Shown in pieces: positions 4,486-57,768 of a stretch of 64,000 nucleotides of DNA (positions are counted from its first letter, which is position 1; every line of letters starts with the position of its first letter). Both the position numbers and the translations under genes were made by a program. Source of the stretch: Nitrospinota bacterium (lineage in GTDB: Bacteria; Nitrospinota_A; UBA7883; JACRGQ01); contig JAOUMJ010000004.1 of assembly GCA_029881495.1 (NCBI GenBank), positions 28,476 through 92,475 on the forward strand. The letters run 5' to 3'. The notes under the pieces were generated by a model. The model made no database searches and had not been told where the DNA came from. It worked only from the letters and a program-made list of their open reading frames with translations.

Positions 4486-6069
4486 ATGTCTTTGCCTTTG
4501 AATTTTGGTATTCCGTATCACACGCTCGTAACCGCCGTAATCATCGCCTTGTCCACGGCTCTTCTGGCGGTACTGTATCAGAAGTTCTTCAGGAAAAAGG
4601 GGATAAACGATTATCCCGACAACTGGCATATGCCGCACCGGCAGAACCTTCATTTCACCGGCAGGGAAGAGCAGATATTGGCTCTCCATGCCTTGCTCCA
4701 CGCTTCCGTTAAGGTCGTGATCATCGGGATGAAGTCCGAGCATGTTTCGGGGGGTATAGGCAAGAGCGAGCTCGCCATTGAGTTCGCATACAGGTGCCGT
4801 GACGAGTATTCCCTGATATGGTGGATTGACGCCGAAACGATATTCTCCATCGAAACCGCTTACATGATGATTGCCAGGAATCTTGGCATCCTGAAAAAGA
4901 ACGAGAGAGATCAAAACAGCATCTCCGCCGCCGTGAAGGATTGGCTCTCCATGAACGGAGAATGGCTCCTTGTTTTCGACAACATGATGAATGAAGAGGA
5001 CCTGCTCCCGTACATCCCCTCGGAAGTGAAGGGGAGGATACTTGTCACCACCCCAAAAAGCGACTGGAAAGAGAGCGTTGCCGCAAGGTTTTCTCTCGAC
5101 GTCTTTACCCCGAAAGAGGCCGTGGATTTTCTTCTGGAAAGGGAAGGGAACACATCGGAGGCGAGAGAGGCGGAAGAGCTATCAAAGGAGACCGGTTTTC
5201 TCCCGCTCGCGCTGGAGCAGGCTTGCGCGCATATTAAATATGAAAAGATATCCATCGCCCAATATCTGGATTCGTTCAGGACAAGAAGGGTCGAGATATT
5301 AATGTCCGGCAGTCCGGCTTCGCCAAATGGTGTGGTCGAGACGGCGTGCGACCTCTCTTTTTCCAAATTGCATGAGGAGGCGAAACAGCTTCTGTTCCTC
5401 TGCGCGTTCCTCCACCCGGAGGATATCCAGTTTGAAATGATAAAGGACGGCGCGGAACATCTCCCTGAACCGCTGAGGTCGGCGGCATACGACATACTGA
5501 GGCTTAGGACCGCCGCCGCAAGCCTCACCTCATACTCCCTCCTGTATTATGAGGAAAACATGATCATCATTCATCGTCTCATGCAGAAAGTGATACGGAA
5601 TCGGATGGACGCGGAAACGAGGAAAATATTCGCGGGGGCCGCGGTGGCGATAGTCGACAAAGCTTTCACCTACGGAGAATACAAGCAGGAAACATGGGAG
5701 CATTCCGACCGCCTTATCGCTCAGGCGTTAACGGCAACGAGCCACGCGGTAGAGGAGGAGGAGGCGCTTGGAACGGCGATAGACCTGATAAATAACACCG
5801 GTCTTTATTTCCAGCAGACGTCGAGATGCCCTGCCGCAAGAGAGCGTCTTGAACTTGGGCTTGCGCTCTCCGGAAAAGTTTACGGCCCCGATAATGCCGA
5901 TGTCGCGGTAATGCACGACAACCTCGCCGAAGTTCTGATGAAACTCCGCGATTTCGAGAACGCGAAAAAACATTTTCAGCGCGCTCTGGAGATAGGTATC
6001 AAGGTTTACGGAGAGGATCACCCCACCACGAACCTCTACCGTGAGAACGTGGAATCGCTCACAAGCTGA
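4486..6069 (+). CDS. membrane-anchored NB-ARC/STAND NTPase with C-terminal TPR repeats
   Basis: N-terminal TM helix; P-loop GGIGKS; Walker B LLVFDN; ILVTT motif; GFLPLAL (GLPLAL-type) motif; C-terminal TPR-like repeats (NLAEVLMKLRDFENAKKHFQRALEI). Confidence 0.7.
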   Translation: MSLPLNFGIPYHTLVTAVIIALSTALLAVLYQKFFRKKGINDYPDNWHMPHRQNLHFTGREEQILALHALLHASVKVVIIGMKSEHVSGGIGKSELAIEFAYRCRDEYSLIWWIDAETIFSIETAYMMIARNLGILKKNERDQNSISAAVKDWLSMNGEWLLVFDNMMNEEDLLPYIPSEVKGRILVTTPKSDWKESVAARFSLDVFTPKEAVDFLLEREGNTSEAREAEELSKETGFLPLALEQACAHIKYEKISIAQYLDSFRTRRVEILMSGSPASPNGVVETACDLSFSKLHEEAKQLLFLCAFLHPEDIQFEMIKDGAEHLPEPLRSAAYDILRLRTAAASLTSYSLLYYEENMIIIHRLMQKVIRNRMDAETRKIFAGAAVAIVDKAFTYGEYKQETWEHSDRLIAQALTATSHAVEEEEALGTAIDLINNTGLYFQQTSRCPAARERLELGLALSGKVYGPDNADVAVMHDNLAEVLMKLRDFENAKKHFQRALEIGIKVYGEDHPTTNLYRENVESLTS

Positions 6070-13477: not shown

Positions 13478-13752
13478 TTTGGAACTCCTCCCGGTTTATG
13501 TAAGTTGAATTATGGTAATTTACCCTTGCCTTGAGGAAGTGTCAAATTAATTAAAAAAGTTCATTGAATTGCCATGAGCTATTTAAACATCTGAAAGTGA
13601 AGCGTTTTTGGAGATATCTGGAAATGTGCCTAAGGAAATAATGTTATGTATGATAACAGGTAGAATTGAGTAGCGGCTCTGGTTTGACCAGTGAACAGTA
13701 AACGCTGAATATATTGTTGAATGTTCAGCAACATTTCAGTAATATCCCAAAG

Positions 13753-19110: not shown

Positions 19111-21408
19111 ATGGCGAAGCTCAATTTTGGTTCGAAACTAGCGCTTAAGGTAATAAAGTACCGTTTCCAGATCATCATACTCACCGTTCTTTCAGTAGCG
19201 GTCTCATCCGCCGGTCTTGCATATCTCACCTTCTCCAGCGACAGCAGGGCGTATTTCGGTCCCGATAATCCACAGCTAAAGGCTCTCGAAAAGCTGGAGA
19301 ATACATATTCTAGGGACGACTCCGTTCTCCTTGCGATTGCGCCGAAGGACGGTAACATCTTTTCCGCCAGGACACTTTCGATTATCGGCGAGATAACCGA
19401 TGAATTCTGGAAGCTCCCCTTCTCCAGCAGGGTGGAATCCCTCACCAACTACCAGCATACTTCGGCAGACGGCGACGAGCTTATAGTGGAGAACCTTGTA
19501 AAGGAGGCCGATGAACTGACGGGCGCTGACCTTGACCGCATAAGGGAGATCGCCGTAAACGAACCGTTCCTGAAGGATCGCCTTGTTTCTTCCAAAGGGA
19601 GCGTTGCCGGCGTCGTAGCTCTTTTCAGAATGCCGGAGAATAAGAACGAGGCGACAAAGGAGGTCGTTGGGAAAGTTCGTGCGTATGTGAAGGAGGTTAA
19701 AAAGAAATACCCCGACATGGAAATATACCTGGTCGGGAGCCTGATGGTGGATACCGCTTTCGCGGAAGCGGGGGAGGACGACATGAGGAGCCTCATCCCT
19801 ATCATGTTCGCGATAATGGTTTTCTTCATGTGGGTGATGCTAAGGTCGGTTACTGCAATGCTTGTCACCACGCTCGTAATTATTTTTTCGTCGGTCGTCT
19901 CCATGGGGATTGCGGGCTGGCTCGGAATCGTGCTTACCGCTCCGTCGGCGAATTCGCCTATAGTCATACTCACGCTTTCGATAGCGGATTCGATACATGT
20001 CCTCGTTACCATGCTGCAGGAGATACGAAAAGGGAGATCGCGCGAAGAGGCGATAGTGGAATCGATGCGCATAAACCTTTCTCCGGTGTTTCTGACCACC
20101 ATTACCACTTCGATAGGTTTTCTCAGCATGAACTTTTCGGATTCTCCCCCTTTCTGGGATCTCGGAAATATAGTATCGATCGGGGTGCTGGTAGCTTTTA
20201 TATATTCGGTTACGTTTCTCCCTGCGATGATGGCCATCCTCCCGATCAAGGTGGGAGAAGAGAAAACTTTCGGCCCGCCGATAATAGACCGGTTCGCCGA
20301 TTTTGTCGTATCCAAAAGTACGGCTCTTATGTGGGGTATGGCTCTTTTTATAATTTTTTCCGTATCGGGCATCTCCAGGATAGACGTGAACGATCTGTAC
20401 CTCGATTATTTCGGAAAGAAGTTCCAGTTCAGGAAGGATACCGATTTCATTGTGGCAAATCTCACCGGTGTAAGCATGGTCGAATACGACCTCTCGTCGG
20501 GTGAAGAGGGGGGGGTATCCTCTCCAGAATATCTTGACACTCTTGAGCGTTTCACTGTTTGGCTCCTTGCCCAGCCGGAAGTAAAACAGATAAGCGGATT
20601 CCATGACGTCATGAAGAGGCTGAACAAAAGCATGCATGGCGACGACCCCGCCTATTACAAGGTACCGGACAGGAGGGATCTTGCCGCGCAGTACCTCCTT
20701 CTGTACGAGATGTCGCTCCCGTTCGGGCTCGATATGAACAACATGATAAACGTCGACAAGTCCTCCACAAGGTTCAGGATATCGCTTATCGACATTTACA
20801 ACCGGGAGATACGGCAGTTCGAAAGGAGGGCGACCGCGTGGCTCGAAGAGAATGCTCCGCCGTCGATGCATGTTGACGGCACAGGGATGTCGATCATCTT
20901 CGCGCACATCACCGACAGGACTATCAACTCAATGTTCAGGGGTACCGCCTTCGCCCTCTTTCTTATATCTGGGCTACTCATACTCGCGTTCATGAATCTC
21001 CGCATAGGGTTGATAAGCCTCCTGCCGAACATAGTTCCGGCGTTGATGACATTCGGTCTATGGGGTTATACGGTGAGCCAGGTCGGTCTCGCCGCTTCGG
21101 TCATCGCGGCGCTCAGCCTCGGGATAGTGGTGGACGACACGATACACTTTCTCTCGAAATATCTTAGGGCAAGAAAGGAGCTCGGCCTAAGTCCAGAAAT
21201 GGCGGTGAGGTACTCCTTCCATACGGTCGGCAGGGCGCTTGTAATAACTTCAGTCATACTCGTTGCCGGATTCGGGATATTGACCCTCTCAAATTTCAAG
21301 GTGAATTCAAACATAGGCACCCTCACCGCGATAGCGATAGCGATAGCGCTCATAGTCGATTTTCTTTTCCTTCCCGCCCTTCTGCTTAAACTTGAAAAGA
21401 GAAGATGA
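19111..21408 (+). CDS. MMPL/SSD-type RND superfamily exporter (HpnN-like)
   Basis: 765 aa; two repeats each of a periplasmic domain followed by a 5-6 TM bundle, typical of MMPL exporters. Confidence 0.75.
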   Translation: MAKLNFGSKLALKVIKYRFQIIILTVLSVAVSSAGLAYLTFSSDSRAYFGPDNPQLKALEKLENTYSRDDSVLLAIAPKDGNIFSARTLSIIGEITDEFWKLPFSSRVESLTNYQHTSADGDELIVENLVKEADELTGADLDRIREIAVNEPFLKDRLVSSKGSVAGVVALFRMPENKNEATKEVVGKVRAYVKEVKKKYPDMEIYLVGSLMVDTAFAEAGEDDMRSLIPIMFAIMVFFMWVMLRSVTAMLVTTLVIIFSSVVSMGIAGWLGIVLTAPSANSPIVILTLSIADSIHVLVTMLQEIRKGRSREEAIVESMRINLSPVFLTTITTSIGFLSMNFSDSPPFWDLGNIVSIGVLVAFIYSVTFLPAMMAILPIKVGEEKTFGPPIIDRFADFVVSKSTALMWGMALFIIFSVSGISRIDVNDLYLDYFGKKFQFRKDTDFIVANLTGVSMVEYDLSSGEEGGVSSPEYLDTLERFTVWLLAQPEVKQISGFHDVMKRLNKSMHGDDPAYYKVPDRRDLAAQYLLLYEMSLPFGLDMNNMINVDKSSTRFRISLIDIYNREIRQFERRATAWLEENAPPSMHVDGTGMSIIFAHITDRTINSMFRGTAFALFLISGLLILAFMNLRIGLISLLPNIVPALMTFGLWGYTVSQVGLAASVIAALSLGIVVDDTIHFLSKYLRARKELGLSPEMAVRYSFHTVGRALVITSVILVAGFGILTLSNFKVNSNIGTLTAIAIAIALIVDFLFLPALLLKLEKRR

Positions 21409-21455
21409 CCGGATGCCGGTTTTTAAAAAGTGTAGAATGGGTGAGCAGCGAAGAG

Positions 21456-22289
21456 ATGGCGCGCCCTTCATATTTTAATAGGAGAATTGCCGTGAGATTA
21501 TTTGCGATTCCGTTTTTTATTTTCCTGACACTCGTCGCGCCTGCGACAGCAGAGACGCCGGAGGAGAAAGGGCTCGCCATAGCGCTGGAAGCGGAGAAGC
21601 GCGACAGGGGATGGGGGGATTCCACATCCGAGCTTGAGATGATCCTTATGAACCGGCATGGGGAGACCAGTATTCGCCAGATGAGGGGGGAGTCGCTTGA
21701 AGTGGAGGGTGACGGCGACAAATCGCTGATGGTTTTCGATAATCCCCGCGACGTGAAAGGCTCCGCCATGCTTACATGGTCGCACAAGAATGGGGACGAC
21801 GACCAGTGGCTCTACCTTCCGGCCCTTAAACGTGTGAAGAGGATATCGTCTTCCAGTAAATCGGGCTCCTTCATGGGTTCGGAGTTCTCATATGAAGACC
21901 TCTCCAGCAGGGAGGTGGAGAAGTACAGCTACCGCTTCCTTCGGGAAGAACCGTGCCCGTGCGAAGAGCTGAAATCGCTTACCTGTTTTGTCTCTGAAAG
22001 TTTTCCGGTGGATAAAAGCTCCGGATACACAAGAATTGTCAGCTGGCTCGATACGAACGACTACCGGTCGTGCAAGGTTGAGTTCTACGACAGGAAGAGC
22101 TCCCATTTGAAAACTCTTCTGTCCAGCAATTATAAAAGATTTCTCGACAAATTCTGGAGGCCGATGAGGCTCGACGTCACGAATCACCAGTCGGGGAAGA
22201 GTACAACGCTGGAGTTCAAGGAATACAAATTTAAAACGGGATTAAAAGATTCGGATTTCAATCAGAACGCTCTCATGAGATTCAAGTAG
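21456..22289 (+). CDS. periplasmic LolA-like / outer-membrane lipoprotein-sorting-like protein (putative)
   Basis: Signal peptide (VRLFAIPFFIFLTLVAPATA); soluble ~250 aa beta-rich protein; start overlaps MMPL stop. Family assignment tentative. Confidence 0.4.
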   Translation: MARPSYFNRRIAVRLFAIPFFIFLTLVAPATAETPEEKGLAIALEAEKRDRGWGDSTSELEMILMNRHGETSIRQMRGESLEVEGDGDKSLMVFDNPRDVKGSAMLTWSHKNGDDDQWLYLPALKRVKRISSSSKSGSFMGSEFSYEDLSSREVEKYSYRFLREEPCPCEELKSLTCFVSESFPVDKSSGYTRIVSWLDTNDYRSCKVEFYDRKSSHLKTLLSSNYKRFLDKFWRPMRLDVTNHQSGKSTTLEFKEYKFKTGLKDSDFNQNALMRFK

Positions 22290-22305
22290 GGGTGTGGGAG
22301 CGGGT

Positions 22306-23556
22306 ATGAAAGGCGTTGTCGGTCCGGCTGTTCGGTTGATGTGGGGCGTTCTATTTTTCATTGCTCTTCTCCACGTAGAATCGCATGCCGCGGAGATCTC
22401 CGGTTATATCGAAGGGGAGGCCAGGATATTTCCATCTTCTCCTCTTTACGACGGGCAGGAGAACCACTCCGGCTCAGTTGCGGTACTGTCGGAGTTTTAC
22501 CAGGAGCTCGGCCCAACCTCCGCAATGACTATCACGCCATTTGCCAGGTTGGATTCGGGTGATCCGAACAGGACCCATTTCGACCTGAGGGAGTTCTTCT
22601 TCCTTCTTCATGGGGAGTGGTGGGAGGTTCGCGCCGGTATCGACAAGGTCTTCTGGGGTGTGACGGAATCCGTGCACCTTGTCGACATAGTGAACCAGAC
22701 AGACATGCTTGAATCGTTTGACGGTGAGGAGAAGTTCGGTCAGCCGATGCTGAAACTCTCAATTGCGGGAGACGTCAAAGGGATCGATCTTTTCATTCTC
22801 CCCCTCTTCAGGGAGAGAAATTTTGCAGGCGAGGGGGGGCGTTTGCGCAGTGAAATACTTGTGGAAGGGGACGAGGCCGCTTATGAAAGCGTAAACAGGG
22901 AAAAGAGTGTCGATTTTGCGGTGCGTTACAGCTATACGTCGGGGGGATTCGATCTTGGCATTTCGTATTTCAAGGGGACCGGCAGGGAGCCGTCGCTTCG
23001 CCTTAAACGGAACGACATGGGATTTCCAGAGATAGACGCGAAAGGGAACATTCATCTCTTCCCGTATTATGAGCAGATCACGCAAGCGGGGGTCGATATG
23101 CTGCTGGTGCTCGATGCGTGGCTGCTGAAACTGGAGTCGATATACAGAACGGGGCAATCCGACAGGGACTGGATGAAAAACGATTTCGCATCTTCGGCGC
23201 TCGGCATTGAATACACGGTATACGGGGTCGCCGGTAGCGGCGCCGATGTAGGCATTCTCGGGGAGTGGGTTTACGACGACAGGGGTGATTCCGCCGTCTC
23301 CGCGCTCAACAACGACCTGATGGCGGGGCTGAGGTTTTCACTAAATGACGTTTCAGGCTCCACCGCGCTCCTTGGATATATCCATGATTATAAAAATAGC
23401 TCTTCTTTCCTCACGCTGGAGGGGAGCAGAAGGCTAAATGACCATCTGAAGCTGGAGCTGCAGGGATTTTACTTCCTCTTCTCCCCGGAGGATGATCCGT
23501 CATGGGTGATAAGGAGAGACTCATTCATGGAGGCTCGGCTCGTCTGGTATTTTTAG
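22306..23556 (+). CDS. putative outer membrane beta-barrel protein
   Basis: Signal peptide (LFFIALLHVESHAA), alternating beta-strand pattern, terminal aromatic (ends ...RLVWYF). Confidence 0.45.
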   Translation: MKGVVGPAVRLMWGVLFFIALLHVESHAAEISGYIEGEARIFPSSPLYDGQENHSGSVAVLSEFYQELGPTSAMTITPFARLDSGDPNRTHFDLREFFFLLHGEWWEVRAGIDKVFWGVTESVHLVDIVNQTDMLESFDGEEKFGQPMLKLSIAGDVKGIDLFILPLFRERNFAGEGGRLRSEILVEGDEAAYESVNREKSVDFAVRYSYTSGGFDLGISYFKGTGREPSLRLKRNDMGFPEIDAKGNIHLFPYYEQITQAGVDMLLVLDAWLLKLESIYRTGQSDRDWMKNDFASSALGIEYTVYGVAGSGADVGILGEWVYDDRGDSAVSALNNDLMAGLRFSLNDVSGSTALLGYIHDYKNSSSFLTLEGSRRLNDHLKLELQGFYFLFSPEDDPSWVIRRDSFMEARLVWYF

Positions 23557-23962
23557 CTGCTGATAAAAATCGGCAGTAGCAAACAGCTCGGGAAAACTTT
23601 GAATCGATATAAAAGTACGCCGCTGTAACCCGGTTACCCGCTTTTTTCTTCTAAATGATTTATTTTTTTATCTATTTTTGTTTGTCCATCAACACTTTAT
23701 TAAATACAAAATGCAATAAGTAACGAAAAATAAGTATGTTTTATATTAAATATCATTCTCATTATTCGGTATATCAAGGAGGCCTGTATCTATAAATATA
23801 CATATATGAGCAAAGATGGTATATATTGCACATTTGTGCATGTCGGGATTATTGACGAGTTTTTACCAGTTATATCAACGGTTTCACTTTCCTTTAGTTG
23901 ATTTTAATCTCATTTCAAGTTAAATTAGATGGAATTATATTGAATTAGGGTGGTAATCGGCT
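23557..23962 (+). promoter_or_regulatory. AT-rich intergenic island upstream of the sigma-54 activator gene, containing palindrome TGCACATTTGTGCA
   Basis: Visibly AT-rich relative to flanking coding sequence; perfect 6-bp inverted repeat TGCACA-TT-TGTGCA near 23829-23842; multiple A/T tracts. Confidence 0.4.
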
Positions 23963-25240
23963 ATGGATAGCGTCAAAGAAATGAACGATGATTCATCAGG
24001 GAGTGATGAGATCTTCCCTGAACCGAAGATAGCTCTTTCCGGTGCACAGGTTTCCGGCGACGATTATGCGACATCCTCTACCGAGGATACGGAGGAGCCT
24101 TTGAATTCCGACTCCGATTCTTTTTCCGACTCCGCGCCCCTGCCCGGCGCTGTTCCGACTGCCGAGACGCAATCAACCCCTGTTTCTGAAGCAGCTGTTC
24201 CGGCAAATCCGTTCTCACGGATAATCGGCAACAGCCAGCAGCTGAACAAGGTTTTTGATTCTGTAAGGAAGATTGCCGACACCGATTCCACTGTGCTGAT
24301 ACTCGGCGAATCGGGAACCGGCAAGGAGCTTTTCGCCAGGGCGATACATGATCATTCGCCGAGAGCAAAAAACAATTTTGTTGTAGTGAACTGCGGCGCG
24401 ATACCGGAGGATCTCCTTGAAAGCGAGCTCTTCGGCCACGAGAAGGGATCGTTTACCGGCGCCATAAGGACGAGGCTCGGGAAATTCGAGCTTGCCAACC
24501 ACGGCACGATCTTCCTCGACGAGATAGGGGACATGAGCCCTTCCCTCCAGGTGAAGCTGTTAAGGATACTGCAACAGCAGGAGTTCGAGCGCGTCGGCGG
24601 AAACCAGGTTATCCGCACGTCGGTAAGGGTTCTTGCCGCCACGAACCGCGACCTCCAGAAGGCGATAGCCGAAAAGAAGTTCCGCGAGGACCTCTTTTAC
24701 CGCCTCAACGTAATCCCGCTCAACCTCCCTCCCCTGCGGGAGAGGAAGGACGATATCCCGAAACTTATTGAGCATTTCATGGGGCGCTTCAACAGGAGCA
24801 AGAACCGAAGCGTCAGCTCCGTCACCTCCGAAGCGATGAGCGCGCTGATAAAGTACGACTGGCCCGGCAATATAAGGGAGCTTGAGAATATCTGCGAGCG
24901 GATGGTTGTCATGACCGGCGAAGGGGAGATAGGGATGGATGATCTGCCGTTCCATATCGTCCCGGACAACGTGGAGAGCGAACAGCTCCTTCACGACATG
25001 CTCCTTGTAGGTAGCGAGGAGGTTGATCTCTTTGTTCCTCAGGACATCCCGCCCGGCCTGGTGGTAAAACTTCCGGATGAGGGGATAAGCCTCAAGGATG
25101 TTGTCGAGGAGTATGAAACGATGCTGATAATGCAGGCGCTCGAAAGGTCTAACTGGGTAAAGAACAAGGCGGCCACGCTCCTTGGACTAAACCGCACTAC
25201 CCTCGTCGAAAAACTGAAGAAAAAGGGTATCAACCGCTAG
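23963..25240 (+). CDS. sigma-54-dependent transcriptional activator (bEBP) with acidic low-complexity N-terminus
   Basis: AAA+ sigma-54 interaction domain ([35 protein letters not shown]), C-terminal Fis-type HTH ([21 protein letters not shown]); first ~95 aa are S/D/E-rich with no REC/GAF/PAS. Confidence 0.9.
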
Positions 25241-26813: not shown

Positions 26814-27095
26814 TCATAACCTCACGCTGAATGTTTCAAATCCGTTTCCAGGTTCTTCCCATCTGGCATCAACCGATGTGACCCTTGCCGATGGGGGACC
26901 CTTTTTGCACCAGGCGACAAGTTTTTCGAGCTTTGACTTTTCCCCTTCGGCTACAATCTCGACCGTACCGTCCGGCAGATTTTTTGCCCATCCGGTAAGG
27001 CCGAGGGAGAGCCCGGTCTCGGCCGTAGTTGAGCGGAAGAAAACCCCCTGCACAATTCCGTGCACTATCAGGTGTACCCTCGCTTTTTCACCCAT
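26814..27095 (-). CDS. acyP: acylphosphatase
   Basis: 93 aa; HGIVQGVFFRSTT and GWAKNLPDGTVEI motifs typical of acylphosphatase. Confidence 0.8.
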   Translation of the reverse strand: MGEKARVHLIVHGIVQGVFFRSTTAETGLSLGLTGWAKNLPDGTVEIVAEGEKSKLEKLVAWCKKGPPSARVTSVDARWEEPGNGFETFSVRL

Positions 27096-51819: not shown

Positions 51820-51975
51820 AATGTGAAAGATTACCGAGCCAGAATATCATGAAAAAAGGGGTAAATCGGCAAGGAAAAAGTGGCGATATTTTTTTATTTT
51901 TTTCTTTGCAGGGGGTTGACAACCTGGTAAATATGTGCAAATATTAGTCATAGAATTAATTGGAATAGTAGCTAT

Positions 51976-52006
51976 TTGACAATGAACTATTTTAAATTAA
52001 TAAATA
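51976..52006 (+). promoter_or_regulatory. candidate sigma-70-type promoter for the RHH gene
   Basis: TTGACA at 51976-51981, 16-17 nt spacer, A/T-rich -10-like TAATAA; second TTGACA at 51916-51921; followed by GGGGG RBS and ATG 52022. Confidence 0.4.
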
Positions 52007-52021
52007 AATGGGGGTAAGTTG

Positions 52022-52198
52022 ATGGCTGGCTCGAAGAAAAAGGTTCCGGTTACTACCCATTTATACGAGGACCAGGTTGAAATGCTCAACAAGATCGCCA
52101 AGGAGTTGCAGGTGACCAAGGCTGTGCTCTTTCGAACGGCTATTGAGGAGCTGTTGAAGAAATACGAGAACAAGCAACTCGACATTGGGATTAAATAG
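52022..52198 (+). CDS. ribbon-helix-helix (CopG/Arc-like) small DNA-binding protein, 58 aa
   Basis: Not in ORF track (<60 aa). ATG with GGGGG RBS; N-terminal basic strand (KKKVPVTTHLYEDQ) followed by two helices. Fold assignment by pattern only. Confidence 0.5.
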   Translation: MAGSKKKVPVTTHLYEDQVEMLNKIAKELQVTKAVLFRTAIEELLKKYENKQLDIGIK

Positions 52199-52248
52199 GG
52201 ATTCTGTTTCAGGAACAGAAAACTAAATTAAGAAAGGAGGGTAGCAAA

Positions 52249-52341
52249 ATGGCAACTAAGAAAAAAGCTAAGAAAAAGGCCACAAAGAAAAAAGCAGCTA
52301 AGAAAAAAGTAGCGAAGAAGAAATCAAAAAAGAAGAAATAA
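52249..52341 (+). CDS. 30-aa poly-lysine micro-protein (MATKKKAKKKATKKKAAKKKVAKKKSKKKK)
   Basis: Not in ORF track. Strong RBS aaggaggg 7 nt upstream of ATG; 20 of 30 codons are Lys in repeating KKK-A-x units; followed by intrinsic terminator. Confidence 0.45.
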   Translation: MATKKKAKKKATKKKAAKKKVAKKKSKKKK

Positions 52342-52424
52342 AAAAATAGGAAAATCATGAAGTCGGCCTTTGTTGCGGCACGCAACATATGGCGGACCTT
52401 AAGAGAGCATAGCTGTTCTTTTGA

Positions 52425-52465
52425 GCCGGGAGGCGAGCCAAGGAAAGCCTCCCGGCTTTTTTTTT
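52425..52465 (+). terminator. Rho-independent terminator
   Basis: Perfect 11-bp stem AGCCGGGAGGC / GCCTCCCGGCT with 11-nt loop, followed by T9 run. Confidence 0.8.
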
Positions 52466-52567
52466 ACCAAATTCACCAGTTCAATCCAGCAATATATAGG
52501 AAATTGTCATCTCCACGTCTGTTAGACGTTCCCTATTCGATCAAAAAGGGGTAATATCTACCCCGAT

Positions 52568-53723: not shown

Positions 53724-56168
53724 TTAGTTCGCGAAGAGCTCCTTGTGTTTCAGTTTCCATTCGATATTCTCCAGCGTTGCGCTTGCCACTCTGCCGTATA
53801 CGGAGAGCGGCTCCCCTTTTACCAGATCCTGTAGTTCCGCGGTTGCGTTTTCATCCTGGCTCAGCTTCAGCTGGCTGTCGCTCCTCACATACCGTACCCA
53901 GCTGTTCTGCTTGTCGTCCGGGTAGAGGTTTAGGACAGCTGTGGAATATTTCTGCACGGCGTCGAAATCGCGCGAGAGATAGGCTGATTCTATGAGCTGG
54001 TAGCGGCTCTCGACCACGAACCATTGGTCAGCCTGGCCAGGCATCTTTTCCTGTTTGTCGACCGCCATTTCGAAGTAGGTGATCGCGTTCTTGTATTCAT
54101 GCCGCGCCTTGTGCATCAGACCGAGATAGTAGGCGGTCTTTGAAACCCTTTCGAAATCCTGGTCAAGGGAGATCGCCCGCACATATGTCGTCATCGCCTC
54201 GCTGTTCTTCTTCTGAATCAGGTAGATATCCCCGAGTGTATGGACAGCCTCCGGGGCGTGGATTGAGCTGTCAAGCAGGTCCGCAAATGGGAGGAGCGTC
54301 TCTTCCGCTTCGTCGTATCTCTTAAGGAGGGCAAGTGTCGTTCCCTTTCCAAGCCGTATCCTCTCCTTGAGGAATCCCTGCCTGTCGAGCCTTTCGGCCT
54401 CTTCAAAACGCGCGAGCGCCTTGTCGTTCAATCCCATTTCGGAGTAGGCATCGGCAACCTTCACCATTACATTGGCGTCCTTGATATCCGTGAGGAACGG
54501 ATCAAAGTTGTCGTAATATGTCGCGAGTATGGTGTAGAACCCTTCCTGCTCATGCAGTCCGTGAATAAGCTCGTAGAGGTCGTTCTTGACGAGTTTCACA
54601 ACAGGTTCCTCCATCTGCGAGTCGGGGAAGTCCACCATCATCTTTTTCAATGCAAGTATCGATTCAATGTATCTCTTCTCCTGGTTGAGGAGTTTAGCTT
54701 TCTGGAACAGCGCGTTTCTTGACTGCGGCGTGTTCGGATGTTTTTTGATTATGTGGTTGTATGTATTGTAGGGTTCGAAGTAATCGGGATAGTCGTATAT
54801 GAGCGCGTCCTTTGGTTCGATAAGTTTTTTCGGCGCGTGACCGAGGGCGGCAAGCCTCAGCCTGGAGTCGAGGCCGTGCGGGAGTTCCGGTATTTTCCTT
54901 GCCTGAATCCCTAGAATTCTCATCGCTTCCATCGGCTGGTTTTTCGAAACATAAATGTCGGCGAGCCTGTTCACGGAGGCTCTCCCCTCGTCGCCGTTGG
55001 GGAAAAGGTTTATCAGCTTTACGTATAGATCCATAGCCTCGTCGAACTTGTTTAGCTGGTAATAGGTGTCGGCAAATCTGAAAAGTGTGTCGGGGTTCGA
55101 CATAACGAATGAGGGCCACTTAAGGTTCGAATCTTCGAACATTTTAAGGGCGGTCTTGTACCGTTTTTTGAAATAGAACGCCTCTGCGATCTTGAACCTT
55201 GCCTCACGCACTTCCTTTGCTTCGGGGTAGAGGAGAAGTATCTTTTCAAGCTCGTTGTATGCGAGAGCGTAATCTCCATTCTTCAGGTATATGTTTGCCC
55301 TGCCGGTGAGCGCACTGACGGTGAATTTCCCTTCAGGCTCCGATTCGATAATGCTTTTATATATGGCGAGAGCTTCAACGTCGAGCCCCTGATCTATATA
55401 GAGGTTCGCGATCCTCATTTTCGCCCTGTTCGCCGCCATAGAGCTGGGGAATGAGGCGGCGACAAGCCTGAACGCATTTATCGCTTCAGGGATCCTTTCA
55501 TTCTTTTTCTTTGCTATGCGGTAGACCGTTTCGGCAAGCATGAACATCGCTTTTTCCTGGTATTTGCTGTCGGGATACTGCCGAATGAATTCGGTAAGTT
55601 TGATTTCGGCGTCATCGAATTTGTTTTTCTGGAACGCCATCATACCCTCGGTATAGAGGTCCTTTCCGCCGAATTTCTGGATATCCTCAACCTTTGCGAG
55701 AAGCTCCTTTTCCTTTTTTTTCAATTCAGCTCTCTTCTCTTTCCCTTTGCTGTTTTTATCCACAGCAAGGAGTCCTGCCCTGTTTTTCAGTCTAATGGTC
55801 AGATCTTTTTTATCCGTTGAAAGGGAGTGGTATACGGATGTTTTAAAATCCTTCAGGTATATATTGGTGATCGTTTCGGCGTTGTCGGTAAGCATCACCG
55901 TTATCTTCTCAACCCTTTTATCGGCAAGCTTATCAGCGTCAAGCTGGGCTCCTATCCCGCTTTGTGGAGTGACTATGGTGATAACCTTGTCTTCCAGGTT
56001 AGGGTCAATGGAATACTCCATTGCCGGTTCGTCAAATGAAATTACCACGGAGGAGAACTGCTCCCCCTCGACCAGCGCGATCTTATTTATCTTGGTAAAG
56101 GAGGCCTCGGATATTCCCGCAAAGACAAGCATCAGAACCGATACTTTTACTGCAATAAATTTTCTCAT
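53724..56168 (-). CDS. secreted TPR-repeat protein (~815 aa)
   Basis: Signal peptide (MRKFIAVKVSVLMLVFAGISEA); many TPR-like repeats; AAAGGA RBS before ATG. ORF track start is 56225. Confidence 0.75.
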   Translation of the reverse strand: MRKFIAVKVSVLMLVFAGISEASFTKINKIALVEGEQFSSVVISFDEPAMEYSIDPNLEDKVITIVTPQSGIGAQLDADKLADKRVEKITVMLTDNAETITNIYLKDFKTSVYHSLSTDKKDLTIRLKNRAGLLAVDKNSKGKEKRAELKKKEKELLAKVEDIQKFGGKDLYTEGMMAFQKNKFDDAEIKLTEFIRQYPDSKYQEKAMFMLAETVYRIAKKKNERIPEAINAFRLVAASFPSSMAANRAKMRIANLYIDQGLDVEALAIYKSIIESEPEGKFTVSALTGRANIYLKNGDYALAYNELEKILLLYPEAKEVREARFKIAEAFYFKKRYKTALKMFEDSNLKWPSFVMSNPDTLFRFADTYYQLNKFDEAMDLYVKLINLFPNGDEGRASVNRLADIYVSKNQPMEAMRILGIQARKIPELPHGLDSRLRLAALGHAPKKLIEPKDALIYDYPDYFEPYNTYNHIIKKHPNTPQSRNALFQKAKLLNQEKRYIESILALKKMMVDFPDSQMEEPVVKLVKNDLYELIHGLHEQEGFYTILATYYDNFDPFLTDIKDANVMVKVADAYSEMGLNDKALARFEEAERLDRQGFLKERIRLGKGTTLALLKRYDEAEETLLPFADLLDSSIHAPEAVHTLGDIYLIQKKNSEAMTTYVRAISLDQDFERVSKTAYYLGLMHKARHEYKNAITYFEMAVDKQEKMPGQADQWFVVESRYQLIESAYLSRDFDAVQKYSTAVLNLYPDDKQNSWVRYVRSDSQLKLSQDENATAELQDLVKGEPLSVYGRVASATLENIEWKLKHKELFAN

Positions 56169-56486
56169 ATAAAATAATCCTTTCACTCTCACACCATAGG
56201 TAGCAAGATGCGGGCCAAAATGCAACCCGGATAGCCCGATACCTTTTATATTGCCACTTTCGTGTCTGACTAATATGTGAGCAATATAAGTGCCAACGAA
56301 TCAAAGGCTTTAAGTCCTGAATAATTGGCGGGTATTTGGGAAAAACCTGGTCTGGATATCTGTATTTTGTTTTGAAACCGGCAAAATTTGCCGGGTGTGG
56401 GGCGGAATTATCCTTTTATCATGATCTCTACGGAAAAAGGGACGGATTTCGTCTGATAAATACCTGTAACGGCAACCTGAGGCGGG

Positions 56487-57614
56487 TTACCGCCTCTTTG
56501 CTGCTGTTGGAAGAGGGATCGTTTCAAGGAATTCCCGGTTGCTGGCCGACTCTTTGAATTTATCAAGGAACATTTTGTATTTTTCTCCCCGCCTGTCGTC
56601 GAGCATTGCCCTGCGCAGAAGCGTCGCCTTTGCGAGGATTTCGGGGTCGAGGAGTTTTTCCTCTTTTCTTGTTCCCGATTTTTGAAAGTTCATCGCCGGA
56701 AAAATTCTGAGGTCGGCCAGGCTTCGCTCAAGGACGAGCTCGGAGTTTCCGGTCCCTTTGAATTCCTGGAAGATCAGTTCGTCCATTTTGCTACCGGTAT
56801 CGACCAGGATGGAGGCGATAATGGTCAGGCTCCCCCCGCCGTCGACATTCCGCGCGGAGCCGAAAATTTTTCTCGGGAAATCAAGCGCCCCGGTTGATAG
56901 ACCTCCGGTCATGGTCTTTCCGCGGTTATCCATATCTCTGTTGAACGCCCTACCGAGTCTCGTGAGGGAATCGATCATCAGCACTACGTCCCTTCCCGAC
57001 TCAACGAGGCTCTTAACCCTTTCGAATATGAGGTGTGCTACGCGGATATGCTCCTTGTTTGGTTTATCGAAATCGGTCGCGATCACCTCGCCGCCAATGA
57101 GACGCTTGAAGTGCGTAGACTCTTCCGGCCTTTCGTCGGCGAGATAGATTATCTGAGCCATATCCGGATAATTTTTCTTCATCCCCATGGCCATTTCTTC
57201 CATTATGGTGGTTTTACCGGCTTTCGGCGGAGAGACTATCAGGAAGCGTTGCCCCTTTCCGATAGGTATCAGCAGGTCGATAATCCTTGTGGAGACAGTA
57301 TTCTGATCGGTTTCAAGAATAAGCTGTTCATTCGGATCGATGGCTGTCAGTTTGGGAAACGGCACCCGTTTTTTTATTTCGTCCGGGCTTCTTCCGTTTA
57401 TCGATTCTATCGATTCAAGGGAGATGTTCGGCTGGTTTTTCAGCGCCTTCCCGGTTCCGGTGACTTCCATGCCTGTTTTAAGCCAGTTGGTCTGAATGAG
57501 TTTTGGCGACAGGTATGGATCGGTCGGCGCGATCCCTATGTCGTTGGTTACTGATCTTAAAAAACCGAATCCTTTCGGAACGATTTCAAGAATGCCTGTT
57601 ACGGATTCTCCCAT
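56487..57614 (-). CDS. rho: transcription termination factor Rho (short N-terminus)
   Basis: OB-fold RNA-binding motif GILEIVPKGFGFLRS; Walker A PPKAGKTT; Q/R loops; C-terminal ATPase domain. ATG 57614 with AAAGG RBS; ORF track start is 57677. Confidence 0.88.
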   Translation of the reverse strand: MGESVTGILEIVPKGFGFLRSVTNDIGIAPTDPYLSPKLIQTNWLKTGMEVTGTGKALKNQPNISLESIESINGRSPDEIKKRVPFPKLTAIDPNEQLILETDQNTVSTRIIDLLIPIGKGQRFLIVSPPKAGKTTIMEEMAMGMKKNYPDMAQIIYLADERPEESTHFKRLIGGEVIATDFDKPNKEHIRVAHLIFERVKSLVESGRDVVLMIDSLTRLGRAFNRDMDNRGKTMTGGLSTGALDFPRKIFGSARNVDGGGSLTIIASILVDTGSKMDELIFQEFKGTGNSELVLERSLADLRIFPAMNFQKSGTRKEEKLLDPEILAKATLLRRAMLDDRRGEKYKMFLDKFKESASNREFLETIPLPTAAKRR

Positions 57615-57768
57615 TTCTATACCTTTATAAGTTTTTTGGTTGCATTCCAAAACGTGGAATAAACAGCCGAGCCGCAAAGTTCAAATGCGGTAGGCGGATA
57701 TCAAAAAATTCGAACTAGAAAAGTCGTATGGTCCCCTAGTTGGAGTTCTAATAATGACTATACAGGAT

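Follow-up and report, generated by a model that had tools for sequence, protein, structure and literature searches.

The region examined here is a 406 bp intergenic gap (23557–23962) between two + strand genes of a Nitrospinota bacterium, and all positions refer to the window, i.e., the whole 64-kb stretch of DNA that was analysed, which belongs to a contig from a metagenome assembly. The gap is bounded on the left by the stop codon of a 420-aa ORF (22294–23556) and on the right by the ATG (23963) of a gene encoding a sigma-54 enhancer-binding protein (bEBP), hereafter called the activator. Nitrospinota is a marine nitrite-oxidising phylum that lacks a genetic system and has next to no mapped promoters. 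The DNA around activator genes was compared between the window, its closest relative L002 (95% protein identity), and L086, L003, L004, L005, L087, L088, L209 and L211 (59–76%). A further locus, L210 (65% identical), does not carry the conserved upstream block described below, so the alignments do not include it. The features of the gap and its right-hand border are as follows:

23557–23576, + strand: hairpin CTGCTGAT-AAAA-ATCGGCAG, starting at the first base past the stop of the upstream 420-aa gene, with no T-run after it
23625–23651, + strand: weak terminator-like element, GTAACC-C-GGTTAC, then CCG and CTTTTTTCTTC, found by inverted-repeat search
23652–23819, no strand: unconstrained AT-rich spacer with long A/T tracts, 77.5% identity to L002
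23827–23840, no strand: palindrome TGCACA-TT-TGTGCA, flagged in an earlier note on this DNA, an exact single copy in the window
23852–23857, + strand: distal TTGACG box, a −35-like hexamer or factor half-site (TGAC invariant in 10 of 10 sequences, the first T in 9 of 10)
23898–23926, + strand: putative proximal sigma-70-type promoter, TTGATT (23898–23903), 17 nt, TAAATT (23921–23926), from ortholog conservation
23922–23948, + strand: three AAnTTA(G) repeats with a 10-nt period (AAATTAG at 23922, GAATTAT at 23932, GAATTAG at 23942), found by Tandem Repeats Finder
23948–23953, + strand: Shine-Dalgarno sequence GGGTGG, 9 nt before ATG 23963, read from the sequence, with G-rich runs in the same place in the orthologs
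23963–25240, + strand: sigma-54 enhancer-binding protein (bEBP) gene, 425 aa, assigned by Pfam
23971–23976, − strand: CGTCAA, an inverted copy of the distal TTGACG (G(C/T)GTCAAA invariant in 10 of 10 sequences), just upstream of a conserved ATG at 23981

Genes flanking the gap

The activator has an acidic N-terminus of ~86 aa together with Sigma54_activat (9e-74), AAA_lid_14 and HTH_8 domains, and no receiver or GAF domain was detected in it by Pfam. None of the NCBIfam equivalogs reaches its cut-off with this protein, the NtrC equivalog scoring 367 bits where 558.6 are needed. No other bEBP gene occurs in the window. The orthologs and nearest homologues of the activator come from Nitrospinota MAGs. 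Which ATG serves as the start codon is ambiguous. In six orthologs (the window among them) M(D/N)(S/T)VKEM is encoded from the upstream ATG, and in the other four (L005, L087, L209 and L211) the activator ATG aligns with window position 23981. Because the GCGTCAAA stretch between the two ATGs is conserved at the nucleotide level whether it is coding or not, translation in the window may in fact begin at 23981. An in-frame N-terminal extension was excluded by a TAA located 9 nt upstream of the ATG.

The acidic, low-complexity N-terminus (24064–24214) evolves faster, with 78–88% nucleotide identity to L002 compared to ~95.5% for the AAA+/HTH part, and differs from that of L002 by 6 aa in length. 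Across the orthologs it ranges from nearly absent (in 354-aa proteins) to more than 150 aa.

The upstream 420-aa ORF has no Pfam match, ends in ...WYF, and is the last gene of an MMPL/LolA-like operon. This operon (19111–23556) encodes an MMPL/HAE3 (HpnN-like) transporter, a LolA-like (TP_0789-like) protein and a protein of ~400–420 aa with an aromatic end that is outer-membrane-like. It also lies 5′ of the activator gene in L004 (166–4897), L088 (1–3490) and L003 (1–1790), and is not found upstream of it in L005, L087, L209 and L211. In L005 (5417–5584) and L087 (3357–3524) there is a conserved 55-aa ORF without a Pfam match that, together with a squalene/phytoene synthase gene, lies divergently upstream of the activator.

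Two hairpins follow the upstream gene. The first (23557–23576) appears as an 8-bp stem in the minimum free energy fold of the whole gap, and could be an mRNA 3′-end stabiliser or a processing site. The second, the terminator-like element at 23625, has a T6 run and a fold of −6.3 kcal/mol, which is no better than that of shuffled sequences (z = 0.08); in L088 a similar GTAACC...GGTT with a T-run is found 3′ of the orthologous gene. A terminator scan called no intrinsic terminator for the upstream operon within the gap, so that transcription may read through from it into the activator gene.

Base composition

The earlier note described the gap as an AT-rich island, and this description is borne out. 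Its GC content is 31%, compared to 51% for the window, the AT content well above average that is looked for in H-NS-like AT islands. It ranks lowest in GC among the 24 intergenic gaps of the window (median 44%), it contains the lowest-GC 400-bp stretch of the window (minimum 30.2%; mean 51.1%, sd 4.0), and its AT-richness is well beyond chance.

A conserved block upstream of the activator gene

The sole conserved part of the gap is a block of ~130 bp (23852–23983), forming the last stretch before the activator gene. The window and L002 are 99.1% identical (109 of 110 nt) across 23853–23962, compared to 88.8% at the third codon positions of the activator and 77.5% in the AT-rich spacer (23664–23819). 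With these values, a naive binomial calculation yields P ~3e-5 for the block. In L003 and L086, an independent and more divergent pair, the 42 nt that lead from the −10 hexamer up to the ATG and the first 21 nt of the ORF match at 63 of 63 positions, while identity is 58.9% at third codon positions and 70% between the distal box and the −35 hexamer.

When the ten orthologs were aligned, invariant or near-invariant columns were seen at the distal TTGAC, at TTGA (23898–23901) and at (T)AAnTT(A) (23921–23927), with further invariant columns at AATT (~23933), AATTA (~23943) and G(C/T)GTCAAA-N3-ATG (23970–23983). Relative to the conserved ATG, the motif positions are fixed within 1–2 nt: TTGAC lies at −126 to −129, the −35 hexamer at −81 to −83, and the AnTTA repeats lie near −57, −47 and −37.

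When the block was used as an nhmmer profile, it matched the orthologs only, with no hits among 80 other bEBP loci or 120 unrelated AT-rich loci. The 80 bEBP control loci came from a scan of the genome collection with the activator protein (42–56% identity, via a FLDEIGDM-type peptide), a scan that returned generic bEBPs and no orthologs. A metagenome scan with TAAATTANATGRAATTA gave at least 120 unrelated loci among the matches listed, none encoding the activator, the pattern being too AT-rich; the E. coli genome collection gave no match. Judged from these alignments, strong purifying selection acts on the promoter-proximal ~130 bp, whose layout is the same in 10 orthologous loci; this supports the suggestion of the earlier note that the gap has a regulatory or promoter role, here for the activator.

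Putative promoter elements and repeats within the block

The putative proximal promoter scores 8/12 against the sigma-70 consensus in the window and 8–9/12 in 7 of the 10 orthologs (window included), and its −35/−10 arrangement is conserved in position in 9 of the 10. It resembles generic sigma-70 promoters in having TTGAnn and TAAnTT hexamers at a 17-nt spacing, with T/A-rich sequence at −40 to −60 (UP-like), but the match to consensus is modest, at 8/12 in the window. A generic promoter scan (threshold 9/12) called no + strand promoter, and since neither the proximal nor the distal promoter of the window was called, the assignment of both rests on conservation. From the proximal promoter, transcription would start at ~23933 and produce a leader of ~30 nt.

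The distal TTGACG box lies 44–46 nt upstream of the proximal −35 hexamer in every ortholog, and a T-rich stretch is found within the block between this box and the proximal promoter. A second TTGAC box placed 45 bp upstream, with a usable −10 in most orthologs, is reminiscent of tandem promoters. Together with its downstream −10, the distal box gives a sigma-70 score of 8–10/12 in 6 of the 10 orthologs (10/12 in L003 and L209); in the window there is no usable −10, the only candidate being TATCAA at a 15-nt spacing. With the exception of L211, every ortholog reaches 8/12 or more for either the proximal or the distal promoter, and the proximal promoter of L211 (TTGAAT-17-TAAGTT) scores 7/12. 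The quality of the −10 hexamers is uneven, with L209 having no good proximal −10, and both L211 and the window having no good distal −10, and so the promoter that is used may differ between lineages.

The three AAnTTA(G) repeats extend from inside the −10 hexamer down to the Shine-Dalgarno sequence, and represent a candidate operator or leader element. Tandem Repeats Finder reports a period of 10 and 2.6 copies. The triple occurs once in the window, where 0.02 occurrences are expected, and the repeats are found at the same three positions in 10 of 10 orthologs. Between L003 and L086, identity over the repeats is 100% (59% at third codon positions). Across 23853–23962, AA/TT dinucleotides show a periodicity of 10.5 nt (p ~0.006).

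The CGTCAA box just inside the ORF is the inverted counterpart of the distal TTGACG, at a distance of about 118–119 bp (centre to centre). It is non-coding in L005, L087, L209 and L211, where the ATG is aligned with 23981.

No sigma-54 promoter (TGGCAC-N5-TTGCW) was found in 23557–23962 within 2 mismatches, and the nearest match is at 26894. The sequence TGGTAT-N3-TTGCA was considered and rejected, as its GG and GC are only 8 nt apart, not 10. Also rejected was a sigma-28-like sequence, GCCGATTA (− strand, 23955–23962), which is not conserved and, by eye, has no TAAA at the right distance.

Elsewhere in the window, tandem sigma-54 promoter matches occur on the − strand, one with a single mismatch (TGGCCCGCATCTTGCT, 56202–56217) and one perfect (TGGCACTTATATTGCT, 56280–56295). 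They lie between rho (56487–57677) and the gene for an 814-aa secreted TPR/YfiO-like protein (53724–56168). Neither the palindrome nor the AATTAG array was seen upstream of this pair. The window has no perfect −24/−12 site other than TGGCACTTATATTGCT, which is a candidate target for one bEBP or another.

Proposed control of the activator gene

Overall, what precedes this Nitrospinota sigma-54 activator gene is probably an ordinary 5′ control region, to which the palindrome is incidental. It would consist of three parts. The first is the 3′ end of the MMPL/LolA-like/outer-membrane-like operon, represented by the post-stop hairpin and the weak hairpin with its T-run; the second is an apparently unconstrained AT-rich spacer of ~170–200 bp. 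The third is the control block (23852–23983), which would drive the activator gene from one or more sigma-70-type promoters and not from a sigma-54 promoter. The likeliest mechanism is that transcription depends on sigma-70 and that a sequence-specific factor would attach to the phased repeats, the two inverted TTGACG boxes, or both, elements that overlap the −10 hexamer, the start site and the ribosome-binding region; by obstructing RNA polymerase or ribosomes, this factor would determine how much activator is made. What the analysis shows is the composition, the pattern of conservation, where the motifs lie, and the lack of a sigma-54 promoter or known RNA family; the use of the promoters, the start site and the binding of any factor are inferred.

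Such a region is otherwise routine and leaves current understanding unchallenged. It does hold a lineage-specific conserved cis-block, and attention moves accordingly from the unconserved palindrome to the selected stretch at 23852–23983. The phased AATTAG repeats and inverted TTGACG boxes provide a concrete and testable cis-element for a widespread, orphan sigma-54 activator of Nitrospinota.

Tandem direct repeats spaced at the period of the helical turn are typical of repression by tandem winged-helix regulators of the OmpR/PhoB/ArcA type. The three short motifs of the block similarly have a 10-nt period, which places them on one face of the helix, and they overlap the −10 hexamer and the predicted start site. 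However, AAnTTA(G) matches none of the consensus sequences checked, and the array may be transcribed and act as RNA.

A second precedent is FleQ, a bEBP that both represses and activates a sigma-54-independent promoter at pelA of P. aeruginosa from two boxes flanking the start site that contain ATTGAC, a motif FleQ requires for binding; these boxes are 19 bp long and centred at −48 and +6 (PMC3424551). The FleQ consensus has been given as GTCaNTAAAtTGAC, as quoted in PMC6120874. The (A/T)TTGAC(G) boxes of the conserved block share the ATTGAC core and bracket the start of a putative promoter that has no −24/−12 elements, and the gene regulated here codes for a bEBP, with the same type of DNA-binding domain (HTH_8).

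By analogy, the block could be an undescribed autoregulatory switch of this Nitrospinota-wide, domain-less sigma-54 activator, operating as FleQ does at pelA. The activator or a partner would bind the two inverted WTTGACG boxes, ~118 bp or 11 helical turns apart, which bracket the promoter, the start site and the ribosome binding site. Binding would loop or bend the DNA, with the three phased AATTAG repeats setting its curvature or recruiting a second factor, and the activator would repress or activate its own sigma-70 promoter. We consider this elaboration unlikely. The boxes are single inverted half-sites ~118 bp apart, and relative to the predicted start the conserved WTTGACG lies at ~−81 and the inverted CGTCAAA at ~+41, a spacing and structure unlike those of the pelA boxes. 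No full GTCA-N6-TGAC dyad is found here, the sequence at the ATG being GTCA-N6-TGRAC. Furthermore, TTGAC is also the plain −35 consensus, and the activator does not have the N-terminal domain of FleQ. The precedents of FleQ and of NtrC (see below) are best taken as leads for this region.

A possible role as leader RNA

Perfect conservation over 63 nt, as in L003 and L086, exceeds what separate short protein sites usually need, and could instead reflect a function of the leader at the RNA level. The block would then act mainly as RNA, i.e., as a 5′ leader, structured or bound by a protein or small RNA, that controls translation of the activator. Two forms can be envisaged: a long leader from the distal promoter that hides the Shine-Dalgarno sequence and the AUG, or a short AU-rich leader carrying the AAUUAG repeats. 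Consistent with this, identity between L003 and L086 runs through the spacers between the repeats as well, a small invariant hairpin (CGUCA...UG(A)ACG) can be drawn around the conserved AUG, and in the window the segment 23884–23980 folds at −20.2 kcal/mol (z = −2.0), with 23895–23903 pairing with 23955–23963 and covering the Shine-Dalgarno sequence.

The hairpin partners of the window are, however, not complementary in L003 and L086, and the stretch from the distal box to the proximal −35 hexamer, which would be part of a long leader, is only 70% identical between these two. A check for conserved secondary structure, as recommended by the earlier note, gave no sign of one: across the 10 orthologs, RNAalifold found no consensus structure (−0.5 and −1.19 kcal/mol) and no compensatory pairs. 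Nor were there matches to Rfam at gathering thresholds anywhere in the window; permissive matches had a best E of at least 3.2 (about 3) and were to eukaryotic and archaeal snoRNA and miRNA models, i.e., noise. A function of the block mainly as RNA therefore appears distinctly unlikely.

Two related candidates were rejected. Long-range RNA pairing between TTGACG and CGTCAA would involve only 6 bp, is not extendable and shows no covariation (RNAalifold, −0.5 kcal/mol). Mini-ORFs beginning ATG-RAA-TTA vary in where they lie and how long they are, and 3–4 orthologs lack them.

The palindrome at 23827–23840

The palindrome that drew attention to this gap is present and its arms are perfect, but it lies at 23827–23840, 2 nt from the position originally given (23829–23842). 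It consists of two 6-bp arms around a non-palindromic TT centre. Inverted repeats of this kind (6-bp arms, spacer of up to 10 nt) number 2 in the gap, compared to 2.8 expected from 1000 dinucleotide shuffles of the gap, the other being GTAACC/GGTTAC at 23625. Repeats having arms with at least 3 G/C were found in 13% of the shuffles.

The notion that the palindrome is a conserved operator was not upheld. In L002, the closest relative, the corresponding sequence is TACACATTCGTGCA, with changes at 23828 (G to A) and 23835 (T to C) that each break a different arm pair, so that 2 of 6 pairs are lost. It is absent from the 8 more distant Nitrospinota orthologs, and the ten-sequence alignment has no conserved column there. 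The surrounding 33 bp (23820–23852) are 84.8% identical to L002, a neutral-like value similar to the rate at synonymous sites. The recurrence that the earlier note asked for was also not seen, as there is no second copy in the 64-kb window, and allowing up to 2 mismatches the sole other match is intragenic (12111). Its half-site hexamers TGCACA and TGTGCA are under-represented in the window, with 16 observed and ~31 expected. Most likely, the palindrome is a chance or strain-specific sequence without a conserved role, as far as can be judged from one close relative plus the distant orthologs.

NtrC sites in the glnALG region overlap and repress sigma-70 promoters, and are involved in the autoregulation of glnA and glnL. 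The palindrome might alternatively be a genuine, lineage-specific operator to which a helix-turn-helix dimer, perhaps the activator, would bind, with a site centred ~53 bp upstream of the distal start or ~100 bp upstream of the proximal start. It forms a perfect 6-2-6 dyad with G/C-containing arms, of a kind seen in only 13% of gap shuffles, and lies just 12 bp upstream of the conserved block. The NtrC consensus is TGCACC-(A/T)4-TGGTGCA, 17 bp in length, and the TGCAC of the palindrome matches its half-site TGCACC (PMC4987338). Like the autoregulatory sites of NtrC, the palindrome is also upstream of a bEBP gene.

The differences are considerable. The palindrome is a 14-bp dyad, not a 17-bp one, with half-site centres 8 bp apart compared to 11 bp in the NtrC site, i.e., 3 bp closer. 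For an NtrC enhancer one would look for the appropriate dyad geometry, a −24/−12 promoter ~80–200 bp downstream, and conservation among orthologs or recurrence, and none of these was found: the palindrome is a single copy with no other intergenic match within 2 mismatches, it has no sigma-54 promoter within reach to serve, and it is unconserved even in L002. The activator itself differs from NtrC in having no receiver domain and in scoring below the equivalog cut-off (367 vs 558.6 bits). With the broken pairs, the synonymous-like divergence around the site and its absence from the 8 other orthologs, a lineage-specific operator is very doubtful.

The AT-rich spacer

Upstream of the conserved block, neither length nor sequence is maintained. 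The gap ranges from 188 bp (L087) to 1103 bp (L004) across the orthologs, and the spacer from ~60 to ~970 bp. As the whole gap of L087 is only 188 bp, the extra AT-rich spacer appears dispensable. The spacer shows no similarity to any ortholog but L002, nor to other parts of the window. In L004, the 1103-bp gap (4898–6000) contains no called gene and has a GC content of 38%, and the match to the conserved block is confined to its last ~135 bp.

The small RNA that the earlier note thought might be hidden here did not materialise: there is no Rfam match, neither strand of the gap folds better than shuffled sequences (z = −0.99 and −0.31), and the similarity of the spacer is to L002 only. Searches for tRNA or tmRNA, dispersed repeats, and tandem repeats other than the AATTAG array found none. 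Small ORFs or leader peptides were likewise rejected, those present being of low complexity and 22–35 aa in length, and in L002 the one that begins near the palindrome no longer has its ATG.

Low GC recurs upstream of the activator in the orthologs (29–40%, compared to 46–56% for the loci), which indicates that composition is kept though sequence is not, and the AT composition of the spacer may itself have a role. That the island is a landing site for silencing or nucleoid-associated proteins, or conceals a separate gene for a small RNA, is nevertheless extremely improbable, since apart from this composition and a weak 10.5-nt AA/TT periodicity in the spacer (p ~0.1), the spacer is less conserved than synonymous sites, has the variable length and restricted similarity just described, contains no credible fold, RNA family, tRNA or small ORF, and would be expected to be AT-enriched as unconstrained DNA under GC-to-AT mutation bias. 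A bias of this kind is general in bacteria and enriches AT wherever DNA is unconstrained.

Two other intergenic regions of the window have low GC, at 13478–13713 (35.6%) and 51820–52567 (39%), and both lie between divergent genes. At 51934 the latter (748 bp) contains a TGCACA/TGTGCA hexamer, the single intergenic one besides those of the palindrome.
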